64,000 bases of DNA from Candidatus Latescibacterota bacterium (lineage in GTDB: Bacteria; Latescibacterota; UBA2968; UBA8231). The stretch is from assembly GCA_965203175.1 (NCBI GenBank), contig OZ241867.1, positions 5,696,001 through 5,760,000 of the forward strand, given 5' to 3'. Position numbers and translations under genes: made by a program. Below are positions 5,639-47,948 of the stretch, in pieces (position 1 is the first letter of the stretch; every line of letters starts with the position of its first letter). The notes under the pieces are model-generated. The model was not told where the DNA came from, searched no databases, and saw nothing but the letters and a program-made list of their open reading frames with translations.

Positions 5639-7306
5639 ATGTGTCCAGTCTCACAATCTGCACGCCCGCGCATCCGATTTCAAGTGCCAATATGGGGTCT
5701 CGCCCTCGCCAGCACTCTCTGCGCCTGCTCCCCTAAAGACCCTCCAGCACCACCAGTGCATTTCGCCGACGCTGGAGCTGCCGCTGGCATCGACTTCGTC
5801 CACTACAACGGCTTTTCCGGCGAATACTACTATGTCGAAACCTTCGGTGCCGGAGCGGCCTTCTTCGACTACGACAGCGATGGCCACCTCGACCTCTACC
5901 TTGCCAACGGCACCTACCTAACCGGTCATCCCCCGGACCAACCGCCGGTCAATCGGCTCTATCGCAATGCGGGCGCAGACACCTTCGCCGACGTCACCGC
6001 CCACAGTGGCAGCGCCGACCCCGGCTACGGCTTTGGCGTTGCGGCCGCAGACTACGACGCCGACGGCGATCCCGACCTCTTCGTCGCCAATTACGGCCCC
6101 AATGCCCTCTACCGCAACGACCAAGGCACCTTCGCCAAAATATCGGCTGGCCTAGCAGATCCGCGCTGGGGCTCCAGTGCCGGTTTCCTCGACTACGATC
6201 TCGACGGCGATCTCGACCTGTTCGTCGCCAATTATGTGCGCTACGCCCTCGACGATGAATCCGTTTGCCAACAGGGCCAAGTGCGCTCGTACTGTGAGCC
6301 TAGCGTGTATGACCCCACCGGCGACCTCCTCTACCGCAACGACGGCAACACCTTCGCCGACGTCACTGAGGAGACCGGCATCGCACTCAAGGGCAAGGGG
6401 CTGGGTGTCGCGCTGGCCGATTACGACCGCGACGGCGATACCGACATCTACGTGGCCAACGACGGCACCATGAACTTTCTCTACGCCAACCAGCACAGCA
6501 CCTTCGCCGAAGTGGGCTTGATCGCTGGCACTCGCTACAACGAGCACGGGCACGCCGACGCGGGTATGGGCGTCGATTTTGGCGACTACGACCGCGATGG
6601 CGATGCCGACCTCTTCGTCACCAACTTCGCCTTTGAAACCAACGCCCTCTACCGCAACGACGGCCAAGGCCAATTCGCCGTCGCCACCCAGCGCCTAGGA
6701 CTGGCCGATCCTTCGTACCGACACCTCGGCTTTGGCACCAAGTTTTTCGACTACGACAACGACGGCGACCTCGACCTCTTCGCCGCCAACGGCCACGTCA
6801 TCGACCGCATTGCAGAAGTGGATTCGAGCCAGACCTATCGGCAACCCAACCAGATGTTCCGCAACGACGCTGGCCGCCGCTTTGCCGATGTCTCGGCCAC
6901 GATGGGACCAAATTTTCAAAAGGCCAACGCCGGTCGGGCTACGGCGGTGGCCGACTACGACGACGACGGCGACCTCGACCTCCTAGTGACCACAGTAGCA
7001 GCCCGGCCGCGACTGTTGCGCAACGACGGCGGCAATGCCCATCACTGGCTACAAATCCTGTTAGTGGGAAAGATCCACCCCGATGCCCTTGGTACGCGAG
7101 TGGAGGTTGTAGCCGACGGAATACGCCAAGTGCAGGAGCGCCAATCGGGCGGCAGCTATCTGTCCAGCCACGACCCCCGCCTGCACTTCGGACTGGGCGC
7201 GGCCACGAGCGCCCAAGTGGAAATCTACTGGCCGGATGGGACGCATCAAATCATAGAAGAGGTCGCCGCCAACCAAGTGCTCAAAGTCATCCAGCCAGAC
7301 CCCTAG
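5639..7306 (+). CDS. CRTAC1 family (FG-GAP/VCBS + ASPIC/UnbV) protein, probable lipoprotein
   Basis: Repeated DYDxDGDxDL and LYRNxG motifs, C-terminal GGSYLSSHDPRLHFGLG, and a lipobox-like LCAC. Confidence 0.9.
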   Translation: MCPVSQSARPRIRFQVPIWGLALASTLCACSPKDPPAPPVHFADAGAAAGIDFVHYNGFSGEYYYVETFGAGAAFFDYDSDGHLDLYLANGTYLTGHPPDQPPVNRLYRNAGADTFADVTAHSGSADPGYGFGVAAADYDADGDPDLFVANYGPNALYRNDQGTFAKISAGLADPRWGSSAGFLDYDLDGDLDLFVANYVRYALDDESVCQQGQVRSYCEPSVYDPTGDLLYRNDGNTFADVTEETGIALKGKGLGVALADYDRDGDTDIYVANDGTMNFLYANQHSTFAEVGLIAGTRYNEHGHADAGMGVDFGDYDRDGDADLFVTNFAFETNALYRNDGQGQFAVATQRLGLADPSYRHLGFGTKFFDYDNDGDLDLFAANGHVIDRIAEVDSSQTYRQPNQMFRNDAGRRFADVSATMGPNFQKANAGRATAVADYDDDGDLDLLVTTVAARPRLLRNDGGNAHHWLQILLVGKIHPDALGTRVEVVADGIRQVQERQSGGSYLSSHDPRLHFGLGAATSAQVEIYWPDGTHQIIEEVAANQVLKVIQPDP

Positions 7307-33746: not shown

Positions 33747-35134
33747 CGTTCCTCCTGTTGTAAAGTTTGCAACCGCGAGCGCGCGTGGACCAGTCGCTGC
33801 GCCTCGCTCGCGTCGTCTTCTGCCAAAGATGCGTACGCGCGCCACTCGGCCCGCGCTCGGCCGGGGTCTAACCGCTCGTAGGTCGAGGCGAGGTGAAAGC
33901 GCCACAGCGCCCGCTCGGGTTCGAGCCGAACGGCCTCCTCACCGGCCTGCACAGCCGCGGCGAGCAAGCCCAACTGCCGATAGACATCGCCCAAGGACGC
34001 GAAAAGCTCGGCGTGGTGCGGATGCGCGACCGTGGCTTCTTTGAACACCTGCACAGCCGCGCGCAGCCGCCGCTGATGCACGTATAGCCCTCCTAACTTC
34101 AAGGCCGCATCCCCTTCCGCTCCGCCCAACGCGATCGCTGCCTTGAACGCCTCTTCCGCTGCGTCGAGCGCGCCCATGCGACTGTGGACGATGCCAATGC
34201 TTACTTGGGCCGCGGCATTGCCGGGCTGTCGGTTAGCAAACGCGGCAAACGCGGCCAGTGCCGAGTCCAGCCGCCCTTCTGCGCTGTGAATCAAACCAAG
34301 ATAGCGATAAACCGGGTACAGGTCGGGATCGGCGGCCTGCGCCCGTTCAAACTGCGCCAGGGCCCCTGTTCCATCTCGTTCCTCCCAGAGCAGCCGCCCC
34401 AGTTCGTAGTGCAAGACGGCTTCCTCGCCCCCCCCATCGCGTGCGCCCAAACCCTCGACGAGCGCGGCGCGGGCCAACTCCCGTTGCCCGGTCTCTCTGT
34501 ATAGCGCGGCGAGGTCGGCCCGGATCCCAGGGTCTTTGGGCGCACTAGCGAGCGCCTGCTCCATCAGAGCGCGCGCCTCCGCGTCCCGCCCCAACCGCAC
34601 CTCTACCCGCGCTAGTTGGTAGCGCACCTCCGCCTGCTCGGGCGCAAGCTGTAGGGATGCGCGATAGGCCGCCTGCGCCGCGTGGAGATTTTCTTGCAAG
34701 TGGCCGAGCGCCTGATAGGCGTGGCCCAGCCACGCGTAAATAAGCGCCGACTTCTCGCCCCGGCGCACGGCGTCCTGATAGGCACGCAGTGCCCCGCTAT
34801 AGCGCCCTTGGGCGGCTAGGCTAAGCCCCAGTTCGGCATAGGCGCGCCCGTCGTCGGGGCGTGCCTCCACTAGGCTGCGGTAGAGTGCGGTCGCGTCTTC
34901 GTACGCACCGCGCGCCACGTAGAGCGCGGCCAAGGTAAAGCTCGCCTCGTACAATTCGGGATCGAGTGCCCGCGCCTGCGCTGCTAGGCGTTCGGCCTGT
35001 GCCAATTCGGCCTGACTCAAGCTCCGCAGCGGCCGGCCGCCGATCAACTCCTGCGCTTGGCGGTACGCGGTCGGCGCATCCGGCTCGGCGGCGCACCCAG
35101 CCAATAACAGCGCGATTGCAGCCAGCACCTTCAC
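33743..35134 (-). CDS. TPR-repeat lipoprotein
   Basis: GTG start, lipobox LAGC and many TPR helices. Confidence 0.85.
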   Translation of the reverse strand: MKVLAAIALLLAGCAAEPDAPTAYRQAQELIGGRPLRSLSQAELAQAERLAAQARALDPELYEASFTLAALYVARGAYEDATALYRSLVEARPDDGRAYAELGLSLAAQGRYSGALRAYQDAVRRGEKSALIYAWLGHAYQALGHLQENLHAAQAAYRASLQLAPEQAEVRYQLARVEVRLGRDAEARALMEQALASAPKDPGIRADLAALYRETGQRELARAALVEGLGARDGGGEEAVLHYELGRLLWEERDGTGALAQFERAQAADPDLYPVYRYLGLIHSAEGRLDSALAAFAAFANRQPGNAAAQVSIGIVHSRMGALDAAEEAFKAAIALGGAEGDAALKLGGLYVHQRRLRAAVQVFKEATVAHPHHAELFASLGDVYRQLGLLAAAVQAGEEAVRLEPERALWRFHLASTYERLDPGRARAEWRAYASLAEDDASEAQRLVHARSRLQTLQQEER

Positions 35135-37197
35135 CGCGTCTCCCTTTCCCTGAGCAACAAGTGCTGGTCGGCCTCAATATCCCGATACACATCGACCTGC
35201 CCACTGGGCCACGCCACCTTAATGCGATCAGCCCGCACCCGTTGCCCCAAACCAAATTCCAACTCCAAGCTGTTGCTGTTGCCAAAGCTGTATCCAGAAG
35301 CTACCTCTTGGTACTGCATCAAGTCGCCGGCATACACCCATACTTTGGCACCGATTCCGTCGCGATTGCTCTCGACCCCTTCCAACTCCAGCACCAAGTA
35401 GTGATTGCCAAAGCCCTCGCTGCGGTAGAACGCATTGGGCCACTGGTCGCCCGGCTGAGCGCCGCCCACTGGCGCATAGAGGTCGAGATCGCCGTCGCGG
35501 TCGTAGTCGGCAAAGGTCACGCCGTGCGATTTGCCCAAGTGCCCCAGCCCGGCGGCTACCGTCGCATCGACAAAGGTGCCATCGCCCCGATTGCGGAAAA
35601 GCACATCCGGCTCGCGCCGGCCCATCTGCGGCCCGCCGTTGCCGAGGTAGATATCTACCCAGCCATCGTTATCCACATCGCCGGGAACGCCGCTCATCGT
35701 GCCCAGCGCTCGCTCTAGCCCGGCAGCTTCCGTCACATCGGCAAAGGTGCCGTCGCCCTTGTTGCGAAAAAGCACCGGCCGGTCGCGCTCGCTCGTCGAT
35801 TTTCCCGCGACTCGATCGGCCAGCACCACCAGGTACTGGCTCCAGTTGCCCACGAAGATGTCCAGCGCACCGTCGTTGTCGTAATCGAGGACAAACGTTA
35901 TAAAGCCATCGATGTACTCGGCACCTACACCGGCCGCTTCCGTCTGATCCGCGAACGCACTGCCACTTCGATTGCGATAGAGCACATTCGGCTCGGTAAA
36001 ATTGCACACGTACAGATCAGGCCAGCCATCTCCGTCAAAGTCGCCCCACGCCGTGCTTAACGCCTGCCCCTTGTGCGCCACCCCGGCGGCTTCCGCCACA
36101 TCGGCAAAGGTGCCATTGCCACGATTGCGATAGAGCACATTGGTCGAGTCGCCAGTCGCGCCCGTGCCATTGGCCACGTAGATGTCGAGGTATCCATCGC
36201 GATCGAAATCGCTCCACGCCGCGCAAAAGCTCGATCCCGGATCGCCCGTACCCGACACTTCCGTCGCATCGGCGAAGACGCCCCGGCCGTCGTTTTGGAA
36301 GAGCGCATTCACGCCGCCGCCAAACCACCCATCGCGCGTCACGTACACATCGGCGTCCCCGTCGTTGTCGTAGTCAGCCGTCTGCACCCCGATCCCGCCC
36401 TCGGGTAGTACCAATTCAGCGGCCTGCGTCCGCTCGGCAAAACGCGCGCCGTCGTTGCGGAAGTACGCCAGTGCTGGATGGCCGATGACGATCAAGTCGA
36501 GATCTCCGTCCTCGTCGTAGTCGGCCCAAGCGCTAGCGCGACCTCCGTCGAATTTATCGACTCCCACCTCGGCCCCGATCTCGCTAAACCGCCCGCTGAT
36601 GGTTCCCTGCGGCACGGCATCGGCAAATTCCCCGGTCGCCGACCGCCCCAATGCCTCCTGCAACCACTTCCGGTGCCAGCGCAACTCCAGCGGCTCGGGA
36701 TGCAACGCCACGGCCTGTTGCAAGATCGAATCGGCGTGGGCGTAATCCTCCTGCCACAGCGCGGCAACCGCCGTCCAGTAGAGCGATTCATATCCCTCGG
36801 GATCGGCGGCCAGCGCCCGCTGCAAATACTTTTCCGCCTGCGCGAACTGCCCCTCTTCCAGCGCCTCTTTCCCCCGACCCAAAAACGTCTCCAACACCAA
36901 AGACCGCGCCGCCGTTAATTCAGGGTCCAGGCTCGCCGCCTGTTCCAGCAACCCCACGCCTTCTTCTATCCGCCCCTGCACGAGCCGCACCCTCCCTAGC
37001 TGCCAGTAGCCCTCGGCGGCCTCGGGTTCCAGCCGAACGCAATGCGCAAAAGCGCGTTCGGCCGCCCTGAGCCGATAGCGCTCCAGCAAGTCCAAGCCCT
37101 GGTAGTACGACTGGAGAAACGCCTCTGAGCGGCCAGTCGGCTCTTGGCAACCGCTTAGGACGAGGAGAGAAAGGGTAATGACTAGAGAAACTCTCAT
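35131..37197 (-). CDS. TPR + FG-GAP/ASPIC-UnbV lipoprotein
   Basis: Lipobox LSGC after ATG 37197; N-terminal TPRs, FG-GAP repeats, SNRDGIGAKV and LEFGLG. Confidence 0.85.
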   Translation of the reverse strand: MRVSLVITLSLLVLSGCQEPTGRSEAFLQSYYQGLDLLERYRLRAAERAFAHCVRLEPEAAEGYWQLGRVRLVQGRIEEGVGLLEQAASLDPELTAARSLVLETFLGRGKEALEEGQFAQAEKYLQRALAADPEGYESLYWTAVAALWQEDYAHADSILQQAVALHPEPLELRWHRKWLQEALGRSATGEFADAVPQGTISGRFSEIGAEVGVDKFDGGRASAWADYDEDGDLDLIVIGHPALAYFRNDGARFAERTQAAELVLPEGGIGVQTADYDNDGDADVYVTRDGWFGGGVNALFQNDGRGVFADATEVSGTGDPGSSFCAAWSDFDRDGYLDIYVANGTGATGDSTNVLYRNRGNGTFADVAEAAGVAHKGQALSTAWGDFDGDGWPDLYVCNFTEPNVLYRNRSGSAFADQTEAAGVGAEYIDGFITFVLDYDNDGALDIFVGNWSQYLVVLADRVAGKSTSERDRPVLFRNKGDGTFADVTEAAGLERALGTMSGVPGDVDNDGWVDIYLGNGGPQMGRREPDVLFRNRGDGTFVDATVAAGLGHLGKSHGVTFADYDRDGDLDLYAPVGGAQPGDQWPNAFYRSEGFGNHYLVLELEGVESNRDGIGAKVWVYAGDLMQYQEVASGYSFGNSNSLELEFGLGQRVRADRIKVAWPSGQVDVYRDIEADQHLLLRERETR

Positions 37198-37294
37198 AGC
37201 AGAAACAACATCCGCCGTCTTTTGCCTGCTGTCAATTTCTAGTACGTTGTTACGTCTCTTTTGACATCTTTCACCAATAAAAGGAGCACCCATA

Positions 37295-38407
37295 ATGAAA
37301 TGGACCCTCTTCTTCGTCGCTTTCCTCTGGACGGCTTCGCATAGCACGGCCGAAGACCGCCCCACCCTCGTACTCGACGGCCAAGCAGCCATGCTAGTCG
37401 TCGATTTAGGCGGCGGCTCCATTTCCGACTTCCACCTCAAAAGCAATCCGCTCAACCCCTTGCAATGGGATTCTTGGTCTTTCGGCGACACCCCCAACCA
37501 AGCGCCGCCCATAGAGCCGCGCTCCATGGGGCACTTCCTCTGCCTCGACCGCTGGGGGCCGGCCACCAAAGCCGAGCAGGCCCACGGCATGGGCTGGCAC
37601 GGCGAGGCCACGCGCGTGTGGTGGACCGTAGATGAGGACGTCCGCGCAGAAGACGGTCACCTCATGGCCCAAATGTCGGCCGAACTGCCCCTGGCCAGCC
37701 TCAAGGTAGTGCGCTCGATTCGCATGGCTCAGGATCAGGCCATCTTTGCAGTCGCCGAGGCCGTCACCAACACCCGCCATTTGGGACGCGTGTACAACAT
37801 CGTCCAGCACCCAACCATTGGTCCACCCTTTTTGGACGAGAGCACCCGCGTTGATGCCAACGGCACGCGCGGCTTTATGCAGGAAACGCCCATGCCAACG
37901 CCCGAGAACCCGGAGGTGAGCTGGCCCTCCGCACTCAAAAAAGACGGCACCGAGGTCGATATTCGCCATTTGACGGATGACGCCTCTCCAGCGGTCGTCT
38001 CGTACATAATCGAGGAAGAATACGGTTGGACCACAGCCATCAACGCCAGCAAAGGACTCCTTATTGGCTACATCTGGCCGGAGGAGGAATACCCTTGGTT
38101 CGACGCTTGGCGGCACGTCCGCGACGGCAAGCCCTTTGCCCGCGGCTTGGAGTTTGGCACTACGGGCCTGCACCAACCTAGCCCGGTGTTGTTGGAAAAG
38201 GGCCAGATTTTCGGCCGCTATCTCTTTCACTATATCGATGCCGACGAGACCCAGGTTTTCACCTACGCCAATTTTCTCATGGAGATTCCCTCCGACTTCG
38301 CCGGCGTTTCTGATGTCGAATACTCCGAGGGGCAGCTAGTGGTGCGCGAGGACGGCGGTCAGGGCCGAGAGCTGACGATGGAGGCGGGAGAACTTTTTGC
38401 GTGGTGA
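37295..38407 (+). CDS. Secreted hypothetical protein, possible galactose-mutarotase/aldose-epimerase fold
   Basis: AAGGAG RBS and signal peptide; WHGEA, QHPTIG and GLEFG resemble mutarotase-fold His/His/Glu motifs. Confidence 0.55.
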   Translation: MKWTLFFVAFLWTASHSTAEDRPTLVLDGQAAMLVVDLGGGSISDFHLKSNPLNPLQWDSWSFGDTPNQAPPIEPRSMGHFLCLDRWGPATKAEQAHGMGWHGEATRVWWTVDEDVRAEDGHLMAQMSAELPLASLKVVRSIRMAQDQAIFAVAEAVTNTRHLGRVYNIVQHPTIGPPFLDESTRVDANGTRGFMQETPMPTPENPEVSWPSALKKDGTEVDIRHLTDDASPAVVSYIIEEEYGWTTAINASKGLLIGYIWPEEEYPWFDAWRHVRDGKPFARGLEFGTTGLHQPSPVLLEKGQIFGRYLFHYIDADETQVFTYANFLMEIPSDFAGVSDVEYSEGQLVVREDGGQGRELTMEAGELFAW

Positions 38408-38563: not shown

Positions 38564-39397
38564 CTACCCTTCCTCCCGCGCCACCTTCCCCTTGACGACC
38601 CACTCGGCCAGCGCCGGCCACAGGGCGTGGACCATCGCCAGCAGCCTGAGCCGCCTCGGAACGTAGAGCTGCTGGCGCCGCTTCAGCATCCCGCGCACAA
38701 TCGCCCGCGCCGCCTTCTCCAAGCTCACCGCTCCCGCCCGGTGTTTGCGCGATGCATCGCCCAACGCCTTCCCGTCTTTTCCCAGAGCACGTTGCCGCAA
38801 CTCCGTCCCCTTGAGCCAGTGCAAGAGCACGGTCATCACCCCCACCCCACTCTCGGCCACCTCCATCCGCAAAGCATCGCAAAACCCCTGTAGCGCGTGT
38901 TTGGACGCCGAGTACCCTGTGTGCAGCGGCACCCCCACCTGCCCCTGAATGGACGAAATAGCCACGAATAGCCCCTTGCTTTTTTTCAGATGCGGCAGCG
39001 CCGGATGCGCGCAATGCACGGCCCCCAAGTAATTCACCTCCATCAGCTTGCGGAATAATGCTACATCCTCGATCGCGGCAAACGCGGTCCACATGCTGAC
39101 GCCAGCGTTGGCGACCAAGTAATCTATGTGCCCAAAGCGCTCGATCGCGGCCTCCACCAGCCGCTTGCCATCCTCGGCTATGGCGACATCCCCAACGACA
39201 GTCAGCACCTCGCTCCCCAACTGCTCGCACTCTTGGGCGACGGCCTCCAACCGCTCGGCATTCCGCGCTAAGAGAACCAGCCGCGCTCCCTGCTGGGCGC
39301 ACTCCACCGCCAGCGTCGCGCCCAAGCCCGCAGAAGCACCAGTGATAACAACGGTCTTATTGCTCAGGCTTCCGGCGCGCACTCCCAAAAATCCCAT
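38564..39397 (-). CDS. Classical SDR oxidoreductase, DHRS7/DHRS7B-like
   Basis: VVITGASAGLG, NAG, VNYLG, AISSIQG and YSASK motifs; start at ATG 39397 or GTG 39382. Confidence 0.88.
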   Translation of the reverse strand: MGFLGVRAGSLSNKTVVITGASAGLGATLAVECAQQGARLVLLARNAERLEAVAQECEQLGSEVLTVVGDVAIAEDGKRLVEAAIERFGHIDYLVANAGVSMWTAFAAIEDVALFRKLMEVNYLGAVHCAHPALPHLKKSKGLFVAISSIQGQVGVPLHTGYSASKHALQGFCDALRMEVAESGVGVMTVLLHWLKGTELRQRALGKDGKALGDASRKHRAGAVSLEKAARAIVRGMLKRRQQLYVPRRLRLLAMVHALWPALAEWVVKGKVAREEG

Positions 39398-39506
39398 TCT
39401 GAATGCCGAAAATATTCTGGGGATCCAGCGCTTCTTTAGTCTTGCGCAGGACCTCGATGCTGTTGTCGCTCTGGATGTGCTGGACAAAGCTCTGCCGAAT
39501 TTTGCC
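39334..39506. repeat. 173-bp direct repeat, copy 1
   Basis: Matches 40449-40621 with 4 substitutions. Confidence 0.97.
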
Positions 39507-39510
39507 GGCC

Positions 39511-40353
39511 CTATGGGTGAAGGGACAGCTCCTGGGCCGCTGCGTATGTCAGCCGCGCCAGCTCGGCCGGCGATTCACCCCGGCGAGGAGTGGCCACCTC
39601 GAAGGTCCAGAAACCGCGGTAGCCGACCTCTCGCAGGGCCTCGCGGATCGCCTCCCAGTCGAGGTCCCCCTGCAGCGGGGCCCAGTGGTTGTCCTGCGGG
39701 TCCTCGCCGTCGACGTCCTGCAGATGGGTTCCCCACAGGCGCTCGCCCGCGGCCCTGATTTCCCCGCCCGGGTCGTTCCCCGCGGTCCAGGCGTGGCCGG
39801 TGTCGACCACCAGCCCCACCGCCTCCTCCGGGTAGTCGTCGACGAGGCCGCGCAGCTCCGTCATGGTCAGGAACGGGTAGTGGGAGCGGTAGGGCAGGTT
39901 TTCCAGCAGAATTCGCACCCCCGACTCGAGCGCCACCGGCACCAGGTCGTCGAGGGAGCGCCGCGCCGCCCCGGACATGATCCCGGTCAGCTCCGGGCGT
40001 TCCGGATCCTCGACGAACCGCGGGTTCGGCACCGGGTGGATGACCATGCCGCCGGCGCCGAGGGCGCCCGACATGCGCAGGTACTCCCCGAGCAGGGCGG
40101 CCTTCTCCCGCCGCCAGTCCTCCTCCGGGGCACCGAGCACGTTGCGCATCATCGGCGCGTGCACGGTGCCGGTGCGCAGATCGGACCCCTCGATCCGCGA
40201 CCGCAGCTGCTCGAGCTCCCGGCTCGTGAAGATCCGTTCGAGGTGGCCCTCCTGCGAGGAAAGCTCGATGTGGGAATACCCGGCGGCGGCGATCTCATCG
40301 AGGGCCTCATCGAGCGGGTCCTTGAATCCTGCGGTGGCGTAGCTGATTTGCAT
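39511..40353 (-). CDS. Sugar phosphate isomerase/epimerase (xylose-isomerase-like TIM barrel), inserted gene
   Basis: IEL, VHAP, VIHP, LLEN, DTGHA, HLQD and WTFE motifs; AGGAGG RBS; visibly higher GC than its flanks. Confidence 0.88.
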   Translation of the reverse strand: MQISYATAGFKDPLDEALDEIAAAGYSHIELSSQEGHLERIFTSRELEQLRSRIEGSDLRTGTVHAPMMRNVLGAPEEDWRREKAALLGEYLRMSGALGAGGMVIHPVPNPRFVEDPERPELTGIMSGAARRSLDDLVPVALESGVRILLENLPYRSHYPFLTMTELRGLVDDYPEEAVGLVVDTGHAWTAGNDPGGEIRAAGERLWGTHLQDVDGEDPQDNHWAPLQGDLDWEAIREALREVGYRGFWTFEVATPRRGESPAELARLTYAAAQELSLHP

Positions 40354-40448
40354 TGGTCCGGTCCTCCTAAGGGAATCGGTTGATCGGTAACTTGATGGAC
40401 AGCCCGGGCCCGGCGAGGGCCGCAGACCCGTGGGGCGTTTTCACAACA

Positions 40449-40621
40449 AAGCACCGGTGATAACGACGGTCTTATTGCTCAGGCTTCCGGCACGCACTCC
40501 CAAAAATCCCATTCTGAATGCCGAAAATATTCTGGGGATCCAGCGCCTCTTTAGTCTTGCGCAGGACCTCGATGCTGTTGTCGCTCTGGATGTGCTGGAC
40601 AAAGCTCTGCCGAATTTTGCC
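40449..40621. repeat. 173-bp direct repeat, copy 2
   Basis: Contains the AGPS 3' end and an SDR 5' stub that stops just outside the repeat (…KTVVITGALL*). Confidence 0.97.
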
Positions 40622-42313
40622 TACCCCGTGGTGGTGGGATAGCGAGCCGCCGTTGTCCAAGATCGTCTGCCGCAGCGCGTGCTCAATGTCGTGATAGACC
40701 TCAATGGGATGCTCCAATCCCCGCCCAGAAAATCCCATCGTAAAGTAGATGCACACCCCCGTGTGGTACGTCTGCGTCACCCGGTACGACAGGTAGGGCC
40801 GCCCGGCGACGCCGCGCGCGCTACACTGCGCGGTCAACTCCGCTTGTACGGCCTGCGTCACGTCGTGGATGCGACTCCAAGGCACAGAGGTCTCAAAGGT
40901 TTCGCCTAAAAAATCGAACTGGTTCAAAAAGTCGCGTATATAGGCGATCCCAAAGGTCGCCATGTAGCCGCGCCGGCCGTTGGTAGCGCCGGCGCTCTTG
41001 CCACCGTGGGCCTTGGCCAGCTTGAAGATCGTCCGCTTCTGGTGCGCGACCTCGGCATGGGTTCCCTCCATGGCGATCGTACACGCCGCCATTTTTAGCG
41101 GATCAAATCCCAACACCTTCAACAAGGCGAACTTCTGCACCTTTTCCTTGAGGTGTTTCAAGGGAGAGGGCGCAGCCTTGAGGGCCTGGCCGAAGCGAAA
41201 TTCTTGGTTGTTGACCAAGCGGATACTCGCCGGCAAGGTCCCGGTCTGGCGCAATGCCTGCAAGTACTCCACGCCTTGGGCGAAGGACTTGAACACCAAC
41301 GAGCCGTATTCGCGCACTTCTGGTAGGGGATGGATCTTGAGCACGGCCTTGGTGATGATGCCGAGGTTGCCCTCTGAGCCAAAAAGCAGCCCGCGCGGCT
41401 GGATGCCAGTCGAGTTGCGCGGCGTGGTGTGCAAGGTCTCCACCGCTCCGGTCGGCGTCACCAAGGTCGCTTCGAGGACGATATCTTCGATATTGCCGTA
41501 GCGGTTTTTCTTCATGCCGCTGGCATTGGTGGCGATCCAGCCGCCCAAGGTCGAAAGCTCAATGCTGTCGGGATCGTGGCCGACGGTGTAGCCCCGAGCG
41601 GCGAGTTCTCGCTCCAGCTCCTTGCCCGAAATCCCCGCTTCGATGCAAGCTTGGAGGTTGTCCTCGTCGAGATCGACAATTCGGTTCATGCGCCGCATAT
41701 CGACCGAGGCGAAAACGCGATCGTCGTCAGTGGGCAGGGCCAGCGCACCGCTGACGTTGGTGCCACCACCGTAGGGCACGAGGCAGACATTGTGCTCGGA
41801 AGCGAGGCGCACGATGGCGCGCACGTGATCTCCGCTTTCTGGATAAATCACCAGATCGATCACTCGCTCCAAGGCGTCGCCGTAGAGCAAGCGATAAACC
41901 TCATCGACGCTGAGCTGGCCGTGACTGTGGATCAGGCGCTCCTCGTCGTCGAGCGAAACCCGCTCTGCGCCGAGCTCGTCTTGCCAAGCGGCGACGAGGC
42001 TTGCGTCTGCCCGCGAGGGCGGTACCTCGTGGCTCTCTTTTTCGACGGCCATCTCGTCGGGGTCAATCGGAACCTGGAGCATTTCTTCGACAAAGGGGAT
42101 GAAATGCGGCATGGTGAAGCCGGCCAGCGGATAGCGGCTGCCGGTCACCCGCACGGTCTTCGGCCCATCGAACTCAAAGCGGGTGTCCGTGTAGCCCCAT
42201 TTGTGCGGATGGCGCTCTCCGTCGGAGAGATCGTAGCACGCATCGGCCGCGGCTTGGCGGACAATGGCCGCGGCAACGGCGAAGACGGCGACGGCGAGGA
42301 CGACTTCGAGCAT
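40472..42313 (-). CDS. agpS: Alkyl-dihydroxyacetonephosphate synthase (AGPS/ADHAPS)-like FAD enzyme
   Basis: KWGYTD, HSHG, PYGGGTNV, GHDPDSIELSTLGGWIATNASGMKKNRYGNIED, GSEGNLG, RVTQTY and SLSHHHGVGK motifs; N-terminal hydrophobic anchor. Confidence 0.88.
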   Translation of the reverse strand: MLEVVLAVAVFAVAAAIVRQAAADACYDLSDGERHPHKWGYTDTRFEFDGPKTVRVTGSRYPLAGFTMPHFIPFVEEMLQVPIDPDEMAVEKESHEVPPSRADASLVAAWQDELGAERVSLDDEERLIHSHGQLSVDEVYRLLYGDALERVIDLVIYPESGDHVRAIVRLASEHNVCLVPYGGGTNVSGALALPTDDDRVFASVDMRRMNRIVDLDEDNLQACIEAGISGKELERELAARGYTVGHDPDSIELSTLGGWIATNASGMKKNRYGNIEDIVLEATLVTPTGAVETLHTTPRNSTGIQPRGLLFGSEGNLGIITKAVLKIHPLPEVREYGSLVFKSFAQGVEYLQALRQTGTLPASIRLVNNQEFRFGQALKAAPSPLKHLKEKVQKFALLKVLGFDPLKMAACTIAMEGTHAEVAHQKRTIFKLAKAHGGKSAGATNGRRGYMATFGIAYIRDFLNQFDFLGETFETSVPWSRIHDVTQAVQAELTAQCSARGVAGRPYLSYRVTQTYHTGVCIYFTMGFSGRGLEHPIEVYHDIEHALRQTILDNGGSLSHHHGVGKIRQSFVQHIQSDNSIEVLRKTKEALDPQNIFGIQNGIFGSACRKPEQ

Positions 42314-42352
42314 AGCTCAATCTCCTAGCACTAATTAAGTGATCAGTAGCTA

Positions 42353-43405
42353 CTACAGCCCCTCCTGCACGTCCTTTTTCCGCACCTTCCATATAAATGC
42401 GTCGTAGTAGTAGTGGATCAGGGCAAAGGAACTGAGCAGCGAATAGCTGAAGAGGTCGAAATTGGTGTTGAAGCCAACGAGGCCAAAGCCAAAGTCGCGC
42501 ACCAAGCCCTCGCTCAGCGCGTGAAAGACGACGGCATAGGCTGCGCACAGCAGGAGAAAGAACTTGACGCCCCCCTTGCCCGCCACGTAGCGCATGAGGG
42601 CCGAGTCGCCGCCCGTGCGCTCGACCTTGTGGCGGTTGTAGAAATACACCATGACGATGTACTGGATCCCGTGCATGATCCGGTGCGCCACCGCAAAGAC
42701 GAGCAGATAGGCCGTGGTAAAACTAGTGAAGTACCACAGAAAATAGCTCGACAATAGAAAGGCGTATTTGAGGGGATTGAGCGCGTAGCCGCGCCAGGCG
42801 CAATAGGCAATGTGTCCCACGTAAACCAGGCCGTAGGCAATGGCAATAGTCCACGAGACTAGGTGTACCGTCGTCACCGCTTCCGCGCTGATGGGCAGGT
42901 GCCACTCGTGCAACATGCGCACCCAGACCGTAGAAAAAAGCGGCGACACCACGAGCATGTTGCCAAAGAAGATCCAATTGAAGGCCAAGTCGAACTTGGC
43001 AGTCGCGGGCGTGCCGGCCTTGGCCTTGAAGTCGTACACGCGCGCAAAGCCGTATTGCTGCATCAAACTGTGCTGGTGATCCCACAAAGTCACGATCAAC
43101 ACCAAGCTCAACGGTGCCCACTGGATCAGGCCGTAGGCAAAGGCGACCAATACTATCGGCCCGAGAATGAACCGCTCCTTGAAGCGGGCGAATTCCGCCG
43201 GCGAGCCATAGACGCGCAACCAAGTGACGAAGTGGTGCGGAATGGTTACCCACAAGGCAATGGCCGCCAGCGCCGCCCCCGGCAGGTAGTGCCCCGACAC
43301 TAACGCAAAGCAGACCGCGGCAAAGGGCAGGCTTACAAACCAGATATAGTCCTGCCGGCGATCGACAATATAGGCAGGTTGCAGAACGATGGAATTACTC
43401 GCCAT
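42353..43405 (-). CDS. Histidine-motif polytopic membrane protein of unknown function
   Basis: About 9 hydrophobic segments; PHH, WDHQH..QQYGF, HRIMHGIQY and HYYYDAFIW motifs. Confidence 0.75.
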   Translation of the reverse strand: MASNSIVLQPAYIVDRRQDYIWFVSLPFAAVCFALVSGHYLPGAALAAIALWVTIPHHFVTWLRVYGSPAEFARFKERFILGPIVLVAFAYGLIQWAPLSLVLIVTLWDHQHSLMQQYGFARVYDFKAKAGTPATAKFDLAFNWIFFGNMLVVSPLFSTVWVRMLHEWHLPISAEAVTTVHLVSWTIAIAYGLVYVGHIAYCAWRGYALNPLKYAFLLSSYFLWYFTSFTTAYLLVFAVAHRIMHGIQYIVMVYFYNRHKVERTGGDSALMRYVAGKGGVKFFLLLCAAYAVVFHALSEGLVRDFGFGLVGFNTNFDLFSYSLLSSFALIHYYYDAFIWKVRKKDVQEGL

Positions 43406-44960
43406 GAGAAGTCAGGGCTAGTGCCACAGCGTCTGGGCTGAAGCGGATTTCGTTGGCGCGGCGCTGGCGCAGAGACGCAGCCAGCTCCTTGACCGCAGCT
43501 TGGAGCTGCGCCGTCGCCCAATCCGCCTCGACCCGCTCGCGGATCTCGTCCAGCGGCGGCAGTCGATCCGGGCGGCGGCGCAATACCTGTAAGACAATAT
43601 AACCATTATCCGTGGCAAAGGGACCGTGAAAAGTCCCTTCGTCGGCGCGCAGAGCGCGGCTGACCGGATTGTCGCCCTCTAGCGCGCCGCTGCCGTAAAT
43701 CACGCTGACGAAACGATCCGCTAGCTCGGTCGTATCGCGACCGGCGCGCATCCGCTCGACAATGGCGGTGCCCTCGGCCTCGTCGCGGGCGAGGAGCCGG
43801 CGCACCTCCACCTCGGCCGGCGCGGTGTAACGGAGCTTGTGCTCCTCGTAAAACAGGCTCAGGCCGTTGGGATTGGGCGGTGGCACCTGCGCTTGCAGCG
43901 CGTCCTGCAAGCGCCGCGCAAGCTGCACCTGCCGCAGTCGCTCCAACTCGCGTTGCAGGTCCGGGTCGGCGGCGAGTGCGAGCCGCGTGGTTTCGAGCGG
44001 GACCAACACGCGCCGCCCGACCTCGCGCCGCAGCACCTTCTCGCTCGCGCCTTGGCCCTTTAGCAGTTCGCGGGCCCGCGCGACCGTTAGCACCCCGCCG
44101 TCGTACTCGGCCACGACGGCCTCTGGCGAACGGTCCGCCGCTAGCCCATCCAGCTCGTAGCGCACATTATAGCGCGCGTGCAGGGTGTCGTAATAAGCCA
44201 AGAGCTGCCGCCCGAGCTTTTCCCGCATCACCAAGCGCTGAATGGTCTCTCGCTCCTGCTCGAAACTAACCGGGTGCATGTCCGTGAGCTTGATGAGAAA
44301 GTACCCATCGGCCACCTGCATCGGCTCGGAGATCTCCCCGATCTGCATGGAGAAGGCCCTTTCGGTCAGGGCGGCGTGCGAGGCCATGGTATCGCCCCAG
44401 CGGTGATAGCCCATGTCGGCCTGACGCTCTAGAATCCGCGAATCCTGCGAGTGCCGCATCGACAGTTCCTCAAAGTCCGCTCCTTCGGCGAGTGCGGCCA
44501 AAATCTCCGGCAGTTGCTCTTGGTCGCGCACCATCAGCAGGCTGAAGCGCACGCGGCGGTTGTACGGGCTGCGCTGGAAATAGGCTCGCAGTTCCTCCTC
44601 GGCGACCTCGGGTTGGACGATCCCGGTGCGCTCGTACAAAGCCTGCTGCACCAGCCGCGCCTGCGCCTGCGCCTGCCACTGCAAAAACTCCGCGCTCTCG
44701 CCCAATCCCCGCCGCTCGGCTTCCTGCACGAGCAGCGTTTGCTCGACGATGGCTTCCAACAGTTTCTCAGCCCCGTATTCCACCCGCAATTCCGGTGCCA
44801 CTCGCGCGATGTAGTGGCGATAGTCCGCCACCCGAATCGCCATTTGCCCCACCTCCACCAAAACGGCATCCTCGGTGGCCATGGCCGGGCCGTCCTCAGC
44901 GCAGCCGATTAGGCCGAGCAACGCCGAGCAAAGTGCCATTCCCATCCAACGCTTACTCAT
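43395..44960 (-). CDS. Parvulin-type PPIase/foldase lipoprotein (SurA/PrsA-like)
   Basis: Lipobox LIGC; EAERRGL, DFEELSMRHSQD, GEISEP..VADGY and GPFATDNGY motifs. Confidence 0.82.
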   Translation of the reverse strand: MSKRWMGMALCSALLGLIGCAEDGPAMATEDAVLVEVGQMAIRVADYRHYIARVAPELRVEYGAEKLLEAIVEQTLLVQEAERRGLGESAEFLQWQAQAQARLVQQALYERTGIVQPEVAEEELRAYFQRSPYNRRVRFSLLMVRDQEQLPEILAALAEGADFEELSMRHSQDSRILERQADMGYHRWGDTMASHAALTERAFSMQIGEISEPMQVADGYFLIKLTDMHPVSFEQERETIQRLVMREKLGRQLLAYYDTLHARYNVRYELDGLAADRSPEAVVAEYDGGVLTVARARELLKGQGASEKVLRREVGRRVLVPLETTRLALAADPDLQRELERLRQVQLARRLQDALQAQVPPPNPNGLSLFYEEHKLRYTAPAEVEVRRLLARDEAEGTAIVERMRAGRDTTELADRFVSVIYGSGALEGDNPVSRALRADEGTFHGPFATDNGYIVLQVLRRRPDRLPPLDEIRERVEADWATAQLQAAVKELAASLRQRRANEIRFSPDAVALALTSHGE

Positions 44961-46323
44961 GCTGCTCGCTCTCTTTCATCTGCTGGATCGCCGCTAGCTC
45001 CCGCTTGCTCTCTTCTACCTTTCCCAACTTCAAGTACGCCACAGCTAACTTCTGCCGCGCGTCGAGCCAGTCCGGCCGGGCCGCCACCACAATGGTCAGC
45101 ATCTCGGCAGCCTTGGCGTAATCACCGACGCGCGCGTGCAGCAGTCCCAAAAAGTAATGTGTCTCCACATCTTCCGGCGCTAAGCGGCGCGCCTCTGCGA
45201 GGCTAGCTAGGGCCTCGTCAAAGCGCTGCAAGCGCATGTACGCCTGACCTAGATTGTAGTGGGCATTGGCGTATTCTGAGTCCAAGGCCAGCGCGGCTTG
45301 ATACTCGACGACGGCCTCGGCGAGTTGGCCCAAGCGCAGGTAGAGGTTGCCTAGGTTGTTGCGGTAGCGCAAGCTGTCCGGCGCGAGCCGCACGGCCAGC
45401 CGATATGCTTCGGCCGCTTCAGTCAAGCGCCCCTGTTCTGTATACAGCAGGCCCAGTTGCGCCCGCGCCTCGTGGTCGTCGGGCGCATTGCCCAACATCC
45501 GCAGTTGGTCGTCGATTTTGTCGAGCTGCTGGTCGAGCTCCCGAAACTGCGTCAGCACTTCGGTGCTCTCTTCGCGGCGGCCGAGCCGCTTGAGGGCATT
45601 AGCCAGCGCGAAGTACGCCTCTTTGGACAAGGAGTCGAGCGCAATGGCGCGGCGAGCAGCGCGTTCAGCCGCCGCGTACTCGCGCCGCTTGAGTTCCACC
45701 TGCGCCAGATCGACGTACGCGGCCGCGGCCGTGCTGTCCAGCTCGACCGCGCGCGTCAGAGTCGCCGCAGCCCGCTCAAAGTCGAGTTCCTTCAGGCGCG
45801 TCCGGCCCAAGAGCCGGTAGAAGGAAGCATTGGTCGAGTCGCGGTCCAGGCCCGCTTGCAGCAGCGTCTCCACCTCGCCGTACTCACCGCGCAAGAAGTA
45901 GATGTAGCCGAGGTCGTAGTAGGTCGTCAGATGGCTGGGATCTAACGAGAGCACCCGGCGGTGTTCGTCAATAGCTTGGGCATAGTTGAGCTGTTTGACG
46001 TACATGGCCGCGAGGTTGTGCCGCGCTGATACGTGCGTCGAATCCAGCGTCAATACGCGCTGATAGGCCGCCATCGCGCTGGGGTAATCGAGCTGGCGCA
46101 CGTAGGCATTGCCGAGGTTGTAGTGAATCTTAGCGGATTTAGGTGCGAGTGCGGCGGCCTGTTTATAGGCGTCAATAGCTTCCGTGTGGCGGCCTTCGGA
46201 GGCGAGCGCAGTGCCGCGCGTAAAGAGCACTTCGGCGTCCATGGCTGCGCCAGGACGCACTTTTTCCTGCGGACTTTCCTCCGCACAGGCGTACAATGCG
46301 AGACAGATCAGCAGCACCTTCAT
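44953..46323 (-). CDS. TPR-repeat lipoprotein
   Basis: ATG 46323 overlaps the upstream stop; lipobox LYAC; HYNLGNAY and NNLGNLY TPRs. Confidence 0.87.
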   Translation of the reverse strand: MKVLLICLALYACAEESPQEKVRPGAAMDAEVLFTRGTALASEGRHTEAIDAYKQAAALAPKSAKIHYNLGNAYVRQLDYPSAMAAYQRVLTLDSTHVSARHNLAAMYVKQLNYAQAIDEHRRVLSLDPSHLTTYYDLGYIYFLRGEYGEVETLLQAGLDRDSTNASFYRLLGRTRLKELDFERAAATLTRAVELDSTAAAAYVDLAQVELKRREYAAAERAARRAIALDSLSKEAYFALANALKRLGRREESTEVLTQFRELDQQLDKIDDQLRMLGNAPDDHEARAQLGLLYTEQGRLTEAAEAYRLAVRLAPDSLRYRNNLGNLYLRLGQLAEAVVEYQAALALDSEYANAHYNLGQAYMRLQRFDEALASLAEARRLAPEDVETHYFLGLLHARVGDYAKAAEMLTIVVAARPDWLDARQKLAVAYLKLGKVEESKRELAAIQQMKESEQHE

Positions 46324-47948
46324 TGCGCCGCTCCTTCGACGAGCAAATGCTCTTGGTTGATGCCTAAATCTGCGTATTCCTCGACCCGGCCGCTCGGCCA
46401 ATAGACGATTACACGCTCAATACTCGTGGCCGTTCCTAACCCAAAGTGCAGTTGCACGTCGCTCTGCGAGAGGTAGCTGGCCCCCGAGCGTACTTCGTCG
46501 GTTTGCACCCGTCCGTCACTTACTACTTCGACGCGGGTGCCGATGCCCGCGCGGTTGCTGTCGCGGCCCTCTAGCCGCAGCCGCACCCAGTGGCCACTCG
46601 CGCCGTCGTTGCGCATCAAGGTCGGCTGAGCGGCGACATTGGCCACTAGCATGTCGATATCCCCATCGTCGTCGTAGTCGCCAAAGGCCGCGCCGCGACT
46701 GACTCGTTTCAACGACAAGGCACCGCCGTCCTCTGCGTATTCCTCAAAACGGCCGTCGCCAATGTTGAGAAAGAGCTGATTGCGCTGCGGGAAGGTCGCG
46801 TTCTCGTATTGCTCGACATCGCTTTCCAAGTGGCCATTGGCGATAAAAAGATCGCGGTCGCCATCGTTGTCCACATCGAAAAAACGCGTACCCCACGCCA
46901 AGTAGGCAATGCTGCCCTTGCCCAACCCAGCCAAGAAGGTTTCATCGACAAAGGTGCCATCGCCGAGGTTTTTGTACAGTGTATTCGTCTCCCACTGAAA
47001 GTTGGTAACGAAGAGGTCGGGATCGCCGTCATTGTCATAGTCGCCCATGTCAACGCCCATGCCCGCTTCGACATCCCCGTCCTCGTTGTACGCAACTCCG
47101 GCCAGCAGCGCTTCGTCCGCAAAGTGGCCAGTGCCGTCGTTGAGATACAAGAAGTTCGAGGTCTTGTCGTTCGCTAGGTAGAGGTCGGGATCGCCGTCGA
47201 GATCCACATCGCCGAAGACCACCCCTAGCTCCTTGCCCTCGGCACTGCCCAACCCGGCTGCGGTCGTGATGTCGGCAAAGGTGCCATCGCCCCCGTTCCG
47301 ATATAGCACGTCGGTCACCCCGTCAAAGGCCTCCGGGCCGCAATAGAGCTGAAGCCCGCTGCCACCCTCGGCGCAGACGCGGTGATTGGTATAGGAGAAG
47401 TTGTGGTAATTGCCCACGTACAAATCGACGAAACCATCGCGATCAATGTCGGCAAACGCAGCACTCGCTCCCCAACCCTCGTCGCCGACTTGGGCCGCGA
47501 CTGTCACATCCGCAAAGGTGCCATCACCCTCGTTCCGATATAGCACATTCGCGCCGAAGTTGGTCACGTACAGATCGAGGTCGCCATCGTTGTCGTAGTC
47601 GCCGACCGCGCACCCCATGCCGTAACCCGTGTCGCCGACACCGGCGTGCGCCGTTACATCGGCAAAGGTGCCGTCGCCGCGATTGTGGTAGAGCGCGTTT
47701 TGCGGCGCGGGGTCGTAGTCGGTCCCAGGCACAGCGGCCCCGTTGATTAGGTAAATGTCGAGACGACCGTCCCCATCGTAGTCGAAAAGTCCCCCGCCGG
47801 GACCGACTGTTTCAATGACGAACTTCTGGCCGTTGGCCCCATTGACGTGGACAAAGCCAATACCCGCTTCTTGGGTGGCGTCGTGGAAGCGAGGGCTGGC
47901 GTAGAGGGGGACGGACAAGAGAAGCAGAAGCAGAAAGAAATTGAGCAT
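46320..47948 (-). CDS. CRTAC1 family (FG-GAP + ASPIC/UnbV) secreted protein
   Basis: Signal peptide, FG-GAP repeats and SGASYLSQSD.QLHFGLG. Confidence 0.9.
   Translation of the reverse strand: MLNFFLLLLLLSVPLYASPRFHDATQEAGIGFVHVNGANGQKFVIETVGPGGGLFDYDGDGRLDIYLINGAAVPGTDYDPAPQNALYHNRGDGTFADVTAHAGVGDTGYGMGCAVGDYDNDGDLDLYVTNFGANVLYRNEGDGTFADVTVAAQVGDEGWGASAAFADIDRDGFVDLYVGNYHNFSYTNHRVCAEGGSGLQLYCGPEAFDGVTDVLYRNGGDGTFADITTAAGLGSAEGKELGVVFGDVDLDGDPDLYLANDKTSNFLYLNDGTGHFADEALLAGVAYNEDGDVEAGMGVDMGDYDNDGDPDLFVTNFQWETNTLYKNLGDGTFVDETFLAGLGKGSIAYLAWGTRFFDVDNDGDRDLFIANGHLESDVEQYENATFPQRNQLFLNIGDGRFEEYAEDGGALSLKRVSRGAAFGDYDDDGDIDMLVANVAAQPTLMRNDGASGHWVRLRLEGRDSNRAGIGTRVEVVSDGRVQTDEVRSGASYLSQSDVQLHFGLGTATSIERVIVYWPSGRVEEYADLGINQEHLLVEGAAQ

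Follow-up and report, generated by a model that had tools for sequence, protein, structure and literature searches.

A putative two-gene unit for alkyl-ether glycerolipid synthesis, an AGPS homologue with a linked SDR, in a Latescibacterota bacterium

To our knowledge, aerobic ether-lipid synthesis in bacteria is known in detail from Myxococcus only, and we know of no named bacterial enzyme candidate for its keto-reduction step. Mammals use a peroxisomal series, FAR1-GNPAT-AGPS-DHRS7B (and DHRS7), and the AGPS of animals has a signal for peroxisomal targeting. DHRS7B is identified as the alkylglycerone-phosphate reductase in the available text of three sources (PMC7517302, PMC13200781, PMC9131029). 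For Myxococcus xanthus, the accessible parts of two papers describe an operon of MXAN_1676 (AGPS), MXAN_1675 (a FAR-GNPAT fusion) and MXAN_1674 (an NAD-dependent epimerase/dehydratase) (PMC9131029, PMC13012113); this operon ends in a gene of the SDR superfamily, and loss of AGPS is reported there to lower ether lipids only slightly (PMC9131029). Myxobacteria also have the ElbD pathway (elbA-E), and matches to elbD and agps co-occur in Latescibacterota sponge MAGs according to an excerpt of a recent preprint (10.64898/2026.06.23.733905). A 2026 PNAS study, as far as its available text goes, leaves the origin of the eukaryotic AGPS and reductase open, with AGPS signal lacking (PMC13012113).

Here we describe a locus of a sponge-associated Latescibacterota bacterium, located on a stretch of 64,000 nucleotides (the window), which has the following features:

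38564–39397, minus strand: classical SDR, candidate acyl/alkyl-DHAP reductase, 277 aa when started at the ATG at 39397 (adh_short, PRK06181)
39334–39516: repeat copy B, holding the working SDR 5′ end and a defunct copy of the terminal ~54 codons of AGPS (about 39360–39521)
39511–40353, minus strand: inserted xylose-isomerase-like TIM-barrel gene, 280 aa (PF01261, 110 bits)
40449–40631: repeat copy A, holding the working AGPS 3′ end and a truncated SDR 5′ stub (about 40441–40512)
40472–42313, minus strand: homologue of AGPS (alkyl-DHAP synthase), 613 aa, with a hydrophobic N-terminal segment (Pfam, similarity to 4bby)
42353–43405, minus strand: neighbouring His-rich polytopic membrane protein, 350 aa (no family match)
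43395–44960, minus strand: SurA/PrsA-like PPIase, partner of the membrane protein (Rotamase_2, 75 bits)

In many relatives the pair forms part of a FAR-X-AGPS-SDR cluster, where X is a putative acyltransferase, and this cluster has the same logical order as the mammalian series. AGPS is clearly homologous in the two systems, with the catalytic residues kept, and the reductase, a candidate one in the bacteria, belongs to the classical SDRs in each. They differ in that the bacterial genes form an operon-like cluster, bacterial AGPS has a hydrophobic N-terminus where the animal enzyme has its targeting signal, and X is far from GNPAT in sequence, its Pfam Acyltransferase match lying under the cut-off. 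The M. xanthus operon, as its available description goes, is likewise a bacterial AGPS operon with a FAR, an acyltransferase and an SDR-superfamily gene. On the other hand, its gene order is different, while in Latescibacterota the FAR and the acyltransferase are separate genes, the acyltransferase has an additional helical N-terminal domain, and the reductase is a classical SDR (PF00106), not an extended one. Indeed, the window contains neither a FAR-acyltransferase fusion nor an extended-SDR (epimerase/dehydratase) gene beside AGPS. The genome does encode an ElbD-like multidomain protein, but its gene has no elbA/B/C/E neighbours.

We propose that AGPS and the SDR work as a two-gene unit that carries out the two committed steps in the aerobic synthesis of alkyl-ether glycerolipids, and put the probability of this reading at roughly 0.7. 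The likely product of the pair is the alkyl-glycerol-phosphate backbone of ether lipids, because a close relative of animal AGPS adjoins a small reductase gene that accompanies it from genome to genome. We infer that the membrane-anchored, FAD-dependent AGPS would replace the acyl group of 1-acyl-DHAP by a fatty alcohol, giving 1-O-alkyl-DHAP, and that the SDR would reduce the 2-keto group, probably with NADPH, to 1-O-alkyl-sn-glycerol-3-phosphate, which ordinary acyltransferases could process further. Acyl-DHAP and fatty alcohol would be supplied by X and an ElbD-like FAR-ACS-acyltransferase encoded elsewhere in the genome. The pathway may be a minor one, because AGPS loss in M. xanthus had only a slight effect on ether lipids. 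Two consecutive alkylglycerol steps had already been proposed in the initial annotation, and the AGPS homology and the overlap, synteny, phyletic pattern and joint transfer of the SDR fit this proposal.

By its sequence, the FAD enzyme is a genuine homologue of AGPS, not a glycolate or lactate oxidase. The reading frame contains ASGMKKNRYGNIED, RVTQTY and HHH and has the hydrophobic N-terminus MLEVVLAVAVFAVAAAIV, so that the motifs and the membrane anchor of the initial annotation are all found within 40472–42313 of the minus strand; of 78 related loci, 61 likewise encode a hydrophobic N-terminal window. Pfam describes a two-domain VAO-type flavoprotein (FAD_binding_4, 137 bits; FAD-oxidase_C, 125.9 bits). 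Guinea-pig AGPS (4bby) matches residues 37–601 with 498.6 bits (E 2.4e-148) and Dictyostelium AGPS scores 291 bits, whereas any other flavoenzyme (GlcD/D-LDH-like) reaches at most 95 bits. The AGPS paralogues of the genome are ~30% identical, over the FAD domain only. Guinea-pig R419, T568, Y578 and H615–617, which we take to be the active-site residues with roles assigned in structural papers, align to R365, T513, Y523 and H560–562 of the window protein, and all are invariant in an alignment of seven diverse sequences (A2). R419H and Y578F are presumably the labels of guinea-pig AGPS variants; structure 4bca shows a Tyr-to-Phe change in the alignment. The description "eukaryote-type" overstates the rarity of the enzyme, since relatives are encoded at 548 or more species-representative loci.

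The SDR frame reaches 39487, with an ATG at 39397, and the motifs reported for it, AISSIQG...YSASKHALQGFCDALRME, are indeed present on the minus strand at 38564–39397/39487. It scores 170.6 bits with adh_short and 294 bits with the NCBIfam model PRK06181 (cut-off 215), an "SDR family oxidoreductase" itself without assigned function. The TGxxxGxG motif (TGASxGLG), N122, S149, Y162 and K166 are conserved in the family alignment (A5), and "PHWLRGT" shows a conserved HW in place of the usual PG before the final Thr. Although 24 genome regions, the SDR itself counted, match its profile at E <= 1e-25, it is single copy (423 bits vs 166 for the next paralogue). Against solved structures the profile scores 172 bits with 2et6, 159 with 2jah, 137 with 11β-HSD1 and 132 with FabG; 11β-HSD1 is thus among the best matches with a margin over FabG of ~5 bits, and is outscored by yeast hydroxyacyl-CoA dehydrogenase and clavaldehyde dehydrogenase. 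These nearest solved relatives form a mixed group, and the resemblance to DHRS7B/PexRAP suggested in the initial annotation is a possible one. An Atlas search with a stored SDR homologue returned generic SDR clusters only. The residue after β-strand 2, the usual NADP-preference site, is Arg in the window protein, which hints at NADPH; it is acidic in several orthologues, and this variation makes the cofactor uncertain. Taken with its genomic linkage, the SDR is likely an acyl/alkyl-DHAP reductase.

This linkage was followed across genomes. The order membrane protein-AGPS-SDR is found in all 19 other loci of the genus, 17 of which also include the PPIase gene while the remaining two reach the contig end. 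Of 80 related loci, 71 have the SDR in the same orientation as AGPS and no more than 2.5 kb downstream (four of the others are short of flank and five have no SDR), so that the pair is syntenic in relatives; 59 of the 71 overlap with AGPS or leave a gap of at most 150 nt, and the other flanking genes vary. One sample of 151 genomes of the phylum contains both genes in 105, AGPS only in 4, the SDR only in none and neither in 42; these synteny and co-occurrence counts are inflated, because related genomes are not independent. In four genomes (G025, G105, G112 and G117) the SDR is kept though far from AGPS or on another contig. AGPS occurs in 1 of 81 sampled genomes of the phylum of a complete chromosome labelled Trueperaceae, which has all four genes (FAR, X, AGPS and SDR), and in 1 of 61 genomes of the phylum of a MAG labelled Poribacteria; a second large AGPS clade in these phyla was therefore discarded in favour of sporadic presence. 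In G028, AGPS is paired with an SDR of another subfamily (28% identical, with an ATGA overlap), and the two genes have GC3 values of 0.56 and 0.48 vs 0.82–0.92 in the surrounding cluster. On this sequence evidence, AGPS and the SDR have been transferred laterally together in the Trueperaceae-labelled chromosome and in G028, and the SDR is tied to AGPS by overlap, synteny, phyletic pattern and joint transfer. Apparent AGPS-SDR fusions (L078 and L087, ORFs of 856–858 aa) were rejected as an Arg/Pro-rich out-of-frame read over AGPS.

In the window itself the AGPS/SDR junction is interrupted by the TIM-barrel gene, with one copy of a direct repeat on either side. The repeat is 183 nt long (39334–39516 vs 40449–40631, 8 mismatches, from a repeat search of the stretch) and includes the 173-bp duplication first noticed as its cleaner core (39334–39506). 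The AGPS remnant in copy B (G000:C1:5735360-5735521) is 91% identical to residues 560–613. When the repeat is collapsed the AGPS stop overlaps the SDR start, as had been predicted; indeed, the alignments of the two genes overlap by 14–38 nt in each of the 18 genus loci that lack the insert, and this ancestral overlap suggests translational coupling. Contigs from two independent sponge-metagenome runs (X5 and X8) span the TIM-barrel gene and enter both repeat copies, so the insert and the repeat are not an artefact of one assembly. The gene is present in 2 of 31 genus genomes, has a GC content of 70.2% and a GC3 of 0.90 (neighbours 0.77–0.79), and its best NCBIfam match, CbiR, stays under its cut-off. 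It is a recent foreign insertion outside the conserved module, which would have entered the junction in the window strain; the junction was duplicated, and therefore AGPS and the SDR both remain whole. A promoter/terminator scan gave no excess over shuffled controls. Contigs from RNA libraries cover parts of the genes, such cover being no proof of transcription, and the uncovered parts of the stretch carry no evidential weight. In one RNA run (X15) a joint skips 1766 nt, at odds with the repeat spacing.

As for the substrates, a FAR-X-AGPS-SDR cluster is found in 26 of 65 loci with enough upstream flank, and no FAR lies near AGPS-SDR in the other 39. The genome search for GNPAT and FAR that the initial annotation called for located X away from the AGPS locus and, 3.4 Mb from the window, an ElbD-like protein of 1406 aa with FAR, Sterile, AMP-binding and Acyltransferase domains, its gene lying among Lgt-like, OYE-like, SDR and diacylglycerol-kinase genes. 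GPAT_C (PF19277) gave no match in this genome; PEDS1/CarF (PF10520) gave none either, but this search is not informative, since its control likewise matched nothing in any genome. The structure model of X (pLDDT 82.5, pTM 0.86) has a helical N-terminal domain of ~350 aa, and its C-terminal half matches PlsC 5kym (Z 16.8, rmsd 3.3, 215 aligned) and, more weakly, human GPAT1 8e50 (Z 11.1) and plant GPAT 1iuq (Z 8.5) in a fold search, over residues ~358–646. With Pfam Acyltransferase (PF01553) X reaches 15.8 bits at best (cut-off 23); weak matches, confined to the C-terminal part, occur in 7 of 16 members. In the HX4D motif H446 is invariant, and five residues further on 10 of 16 members have D and 6 have E. 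A search of solved structures with the sequence profile of X found no match, and the fold search alone succeeded. The model thus indicates that X is a divergent acyltransferase of the GPAT/PlsC fold, a family that would take the place of GNPAT. Since X occurs without AGPS in 8 of the 151 genomes, it is not reserved for the ether-lipid pathway. Substrates had been expected to come from elsewhere or from a host: the former fits X and the ElbD-like protein, and given these two no host supply need be invoked.

Among other explanations, the AGPS homologue and the SDR could use another ketol phosphate or acceptor and give a product other than alkylglycerol phosphate, as the small ether-lipid defect of the M. 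xanthus AGPS mutant might suggest (PMC9131029, available text). However, the residues that make up the active site of animal AGPS are kept without variation and many genomes place a FAR and a GPAT-fold acyltransferase, makers of the AGPS substrates, alongside, and we consider this unlikely. Alternatively, the SDR could act before AGPS, as a fatty aldehyde/alcohol-forming reductase supplying the fatty alcohol co-substrate: aldehyde reduction is within the range of SDRs, clavaldehyde dehydrogenase ranks among the top matches of known structure (159 bits), and a FAR is absent nearby in 39 of 65 loci. This order is quite improbable, for the SDR is present in 27 of 27 FAR-X loci (four with broken SDR frames counted), and being present wherever FAR is, it is no stand-in for FAR; moreover, it lies directly 3′ of AGPS, not beside FAR, and FAR enzymes with a Sterile domain are generally known to convert acyl-CoA to alcohol. 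Finally, an accidental adjacency of a co-transcribed housekeeping SDR without functional meaning, conceivable given the 24 SDR-like regions of the genome, is highly improbable for a single-copy family that is set apart from its paralogues, occurs without AGPS in none of 151 genomes and moves jointly with it.

The two-gene unit offers a bacterial candidate for the keto-reduction step, a single-copy SDR family never found without AGPS in the sampled genomes, and FAR, X, AGPS and SDR make a four-gene set open to direct expression and assay. It is doubtful that FAR-X-AGPS-SDR is a complete, self-contained bacterial pathway of the peroxisomal type whose SDR is genuinely related to eukaryotic DHRS7B/DHRS7 and is the first acyl/alkyl-DHAP reductase from a bacterium. 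If this were so, the eukaryotic AGPS and reductase steps would derive from such a cluster rather than from the operon of myxobacteria; in any case the genes contribute the reductase step that has been missing from the discussion of how plasmalogen synthesis came to eukaryotes. The origin of the ether lipids in which sponges are rich is disputed, and the carriers of AGPS-SDR are abundant sponge symbionts, so these genes bear on who makes sponge ether lipids.

The range first assigned to the module (38564–43405) does contain the AGPS and SDR features, but its 350-aa membrane protein probably belongs with the PPIase gene and not with AGPS-SDR. It has no Pfam or NCBIfam match, and fold searches gave none either (best E 0.19 in Foldseek, best Z 6.9 in VIA). 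Among 11 loci of other genera, 7 have its gene beside the PPIase gene, and no AGPS was found downstream in these 11 (~1.5 kb examined, ~0.1 kb in one). A role as lipid desaturase or module member was therefore rejected, as the protein stays with the PPIase without AGPS and has no fold match. Its His and Asp residues include invariant ones, and its paralogues are fused to TPR repeats.

The alkyl-DHAP synthase (AGPS) homologue, an FAD enzyme, lies within a run of five consecutive genes on one strand, in which a TIM-barrel gene separates it from a small reductase gene (SDR) and a direct repeat is found on both sides of the TIM-barrel gene. The features are as follows:

43395-44960, reverse strand: SurA-like PPIase, first of the five genes
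42353-43405, reverse strand: membrane protein, 350 aa, second
40472-42313, reverse strand: FAD enzyme (AGPS), 613 aa, third
39511-40353, reverse strand: TIM-barrel protein, 280 aa, fourth
38564-39397, reverse strand: SDR, fifth
39334-39516 and 40449-40631: the two copies of the 183-nt direct repeat

The motifs quoted in the initial annotation are all found in the window. In a search of all solved structures, the top match of the FAD enzyme is guinea-pig AGPS (E 2.4e-148, 498.6 bits, residues 37-601), and Dictyostelium AGPS scores 291 bits. After the AGPS structures come putative oxidoreductases, D-lactate dehydrogenase and glycolate oxidase at no more than 95 bits, so that the enzyme does not group with the lactate/glycolate oxidases and the earlier identification stands. 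No NCBIfam model was found for it, the GlcD models remaining far under their cut-offs. In the structure-search alignment, R365, T513, Y523 and H560-562 are the counterparts of guinea-pig R419, T568, Y578 and H615-617, whose functional roles come from the structural literature; these residues are invariant across seven sequences with identity down to 46%. Judged by its sequence, the window enzyme is an AGPS. An N-terminal hydrophobic segment is present in the window protein and in 61 of 78 evaluable related loci. As for four genus relatives (L048, L049, L062 and L100), no such in-frame segment was found and the matches start at residue 23, which suggests that the membrane anchor may vary within the genus.

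The SDR is of the classical type (TGxxxGxG plus N122, S149, Y162 and K166) and passes the NCBIfam model PRK06181, which has no assigned function, with 294 bits vs a cut-off of 215. It represents a single, well-separated family in its own genome, scoring 423 bits, with the closest of 23 paralogues reaching 166. Against solved structures, the best relatives of the family profile are a mixed set: yeast (3R)-hydroxyacyl-CoA dehydrogenase (172 bits), clavaldehyde dehydrogenase (159), 11beta-HSD1 (137) and FabG (132). The proposed specific likeness to the mammalian reductase DHRS7B is a lead only, and that label is not supported.

The proposal that AGPS followed by a reductase constitutes a two-step ether-lipid unit, with two consecutive steps encoded together, is well supported by comparative genomics. 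The order membrane protein-AGPS-SDR is found in all 19 other genus loci examined, with the PPIase gene also present in 17; the remaining two stop at a contig end. For a wider synteny sample, the 80 best AGPS loci were taken out of at least 548 in species-representative genomes. In 71 of these 80, the SDR is found on the AGPS strand, no more than 2.5 kb downstream; the two genes overlap in 16 cases and are 1-150 nt apart in 43, 151-700 nt apart in 7 and farther apart in 5. Four of the 80 loci end too soon and five have no SDR, two of the latter with only ~1.1 kb of flank. The genes around the pair differ widely between loci. Co-occurrence was scored across 151 phylum genomes, taken as one even sample: 109 carry AGPS and 105 the SDR family. 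Both genes are present in 105 genomes, AGPS alone in 4, SDR alone in none and neither in 42. Of the AGPS-only genomes, G109 is 75% complete and has AGPS at the end of a contig, and in G107 a stop codon interrupts AGPS; the other two are G024 and G057. Furthermore, G025, G105, G112 and G117 retain the SDR, though it lies megabases from AGPS or on a different contig. Since related genomes are not independent, separate events are fewer than these counts would suggest.

The initial annotation had also argued that collapsing a 173-bp duplication would bring AGPS and SDR into overlap. This duplication corresponds to the 183-nt direct repeat, whose copies differ at 8 positions and whose cleaner core is 173 nt. 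The upstream copy carries the functional end of the FAD gene together with a truncated SDR start; the downstream copy carries the functional SDR start and a non-functional duplicate of the FAD gene's last ~54 codons. In the 18 genus loci without the TIM-barrel gene, the SDR alignment starts 14-38 nt ahead of the end of the AGPS alignment, in agreement with the proposed collapse and indicating that overlapping genes are the ancestral state. Of 31 genus genomes, 2 carry the TIM-barrel gene, and nowhere but at this junction; its GC3 is 0.90 vs 0.77-0.79 in its neighbours. On compositional and positional grounds, it is a foreign insertion exactly at the AGPS/SDR overlap, with the junction duplicated and both genes surviving; because the genes overlap, both stay intact after an insertion only with a duplicated junction. 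The left junction is identical in the window's own genome and in G022, and the duplicated stretch measures 183 nt vs ~66 nt in G022. Two independent sponge-metagenome runs yielded contigs that cover the TIM-barrel gene and both junctions. Two metatranscriptome libraries yield contigs over parts of SDR, TIM and AGPS at 90-99% identity, which are no proof of transcription. In another Latescibacterota genus, the junction carries small genes, namely DUF6036 (nucleotidyltransferase-like) genes with DUF433 or unnamed small ORFs (L035:7810-8942, L036:5089-5939, L109, L110 and L115; the Pfam basis is from L035 and L036 only). The junction appears to take up insertions repeatedly.

Upstream DNA of 4.2 kb or more is available for 65 loci, of which 26 have the order FAR-X-AGPS-SDR, where FAR is a fatty acyl-CoA reductase (NAD_binding_4 plus Sterile) and X a protein of 640-690 aa. 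No Pfam family is above cut-off for X, and weak Acyltransferase matches are seen at the C-terminus in 7 of 16 members. X has an invariant His within an H-x4-D/E motif, and residues ~358-646 of its confident structure model (pLDDT 82.5) match PlsC (Z 16.8, rmsd 3.3, 215 residues); the model also matches human GPAT1 (Z 11.1) and a plant GPAT (Z 8.5). The fold matches point to X as a divergent glycerolipid acyltransferase, at the place where GNPAT, the acyltransferase of the peroxisomal pathway, would act; its substrate would be DHAP. X accompanies AGPS in 107 of the 151 phylum genomes; a further 8 have X without AGPS, and 2 AGPS carriers lack X. In the window's own genome, X is solitary at 1.54 Mb, and a 1406-aa FAR-Sterile-AMP-binding-Acyltransferase protein, resembling the myxobacterial ether-lipid protein ElbD, is encoded at 2.28 Mb. 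Makers of both AGPS substrates would thus be encoded in the genome, and host supply, which is not supported, need not be invoked.

Two cases point to joint transfer of AGPS and the SDR between lineages. FAR-X-AGPS-SDR is present in a complete 3.1-Mb chromosome labelled Trueperaceae (L101 in G162), the sole AGPS carrier among 81 sampled genomes of its phylum. The GC of this cluster matches that of its flanks, so its transfer was probably not recent. In a further genome (L041, G028:C96), the cluster is preceded by an acyl-CoA synthetase (ACS) and followed by an ORF that its sequence marks as HAD-like; the SDR next to AGPS belongs to another subfamily (28% identity) and overlaps it by ATGA. GC3 is 0.56 for this AGPS and 0.48 for this SDR, vs 0.82-0.92 for the surrounding ACS, FAR, X, HAD-like and methyltransferase genes, and GC is 49.5% and 43.8% vs 65-69% in the rest of the cluster. 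Its composition marks the pair as a low-GC cassette of foreign origin inside an ACS-FAR-X cluster.

The AGPS operon of M. xanthus is already in print (PMC9131029, PMC13012113), and its last gene is an SDR-superfamily member (PMC9131029); like the Latescibacterota pair and the G028 cassette, it couples AGPS with an SDR-type gene. Three different SDR-type genes linked to AGPS in three lineages fit a shared need for a keto-reduction step. Matches to agps and elbD in Latescibacterota sponge MAGs are described as stand-alone genes in a June 2026 preprint (10.64898/2026.06.23.733905), where the word 'dehydrogenase' is absent, and the mammalian reductases DHRS7B and DHRS7 have been published (PMC7517302, PMC13200781). 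Neither a bacterial AGPS-SDR pair nor a FAR-X-AGPS-SDR cluster turned up in our literature search; supplements may hold more.

The membrane protein is polytopic. Its family is unnamed and has no Pfam match, and H57, D109, H112, H245, H331 and D335 are invariant in it. Its structure model is confident (pLDDT 83.4), and a fold search with it gave no match. In the phylum sample, it is limited to the window's family (43 of 63 other genomes there). Membership in the module was considered and rejected: in 11 loci from other genera the protein occurs without AGPS in the downstream DNA covered, and in 7 of these the PPIase gene is kept ahead of it. We take it to be a neighbour by descent, outside the module. 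Two own-genome paralogues bear C-terminal TPR repeats (L155:4402-6297 and L156:4370-6112). Large FG-GAP/ASPIC-UnbV plus TPR proteins and a TPR protein are encoded on either side of the window locus (35131-37611 and 44953-46401, both reverse strand), and comparable genes also border the membrane-protein paralogues elsewhere in the genome.

Two other own-genome or relative loci deserve mention. The ElbD-like gene (L027, G000:C1:2274000-2290000) is bordered by genes for a Lgt-like diacylglyceryl transferase, an OYE-like flavoprotein, a 281-aa SDR and a YegS-type lipid kinase, and may belong to another ether-lipid cluster, one that differs from the elb operon of myxobacteria. Finally, L028 encodes an 835-aa protein in which a FAR-like NAD_binding_4 domain is fused to a sulfotransferase domain (6468-8975, reverse strand); its gene adjoins an ORF of 1742 aa and a B12-binding radical-SAM gene.
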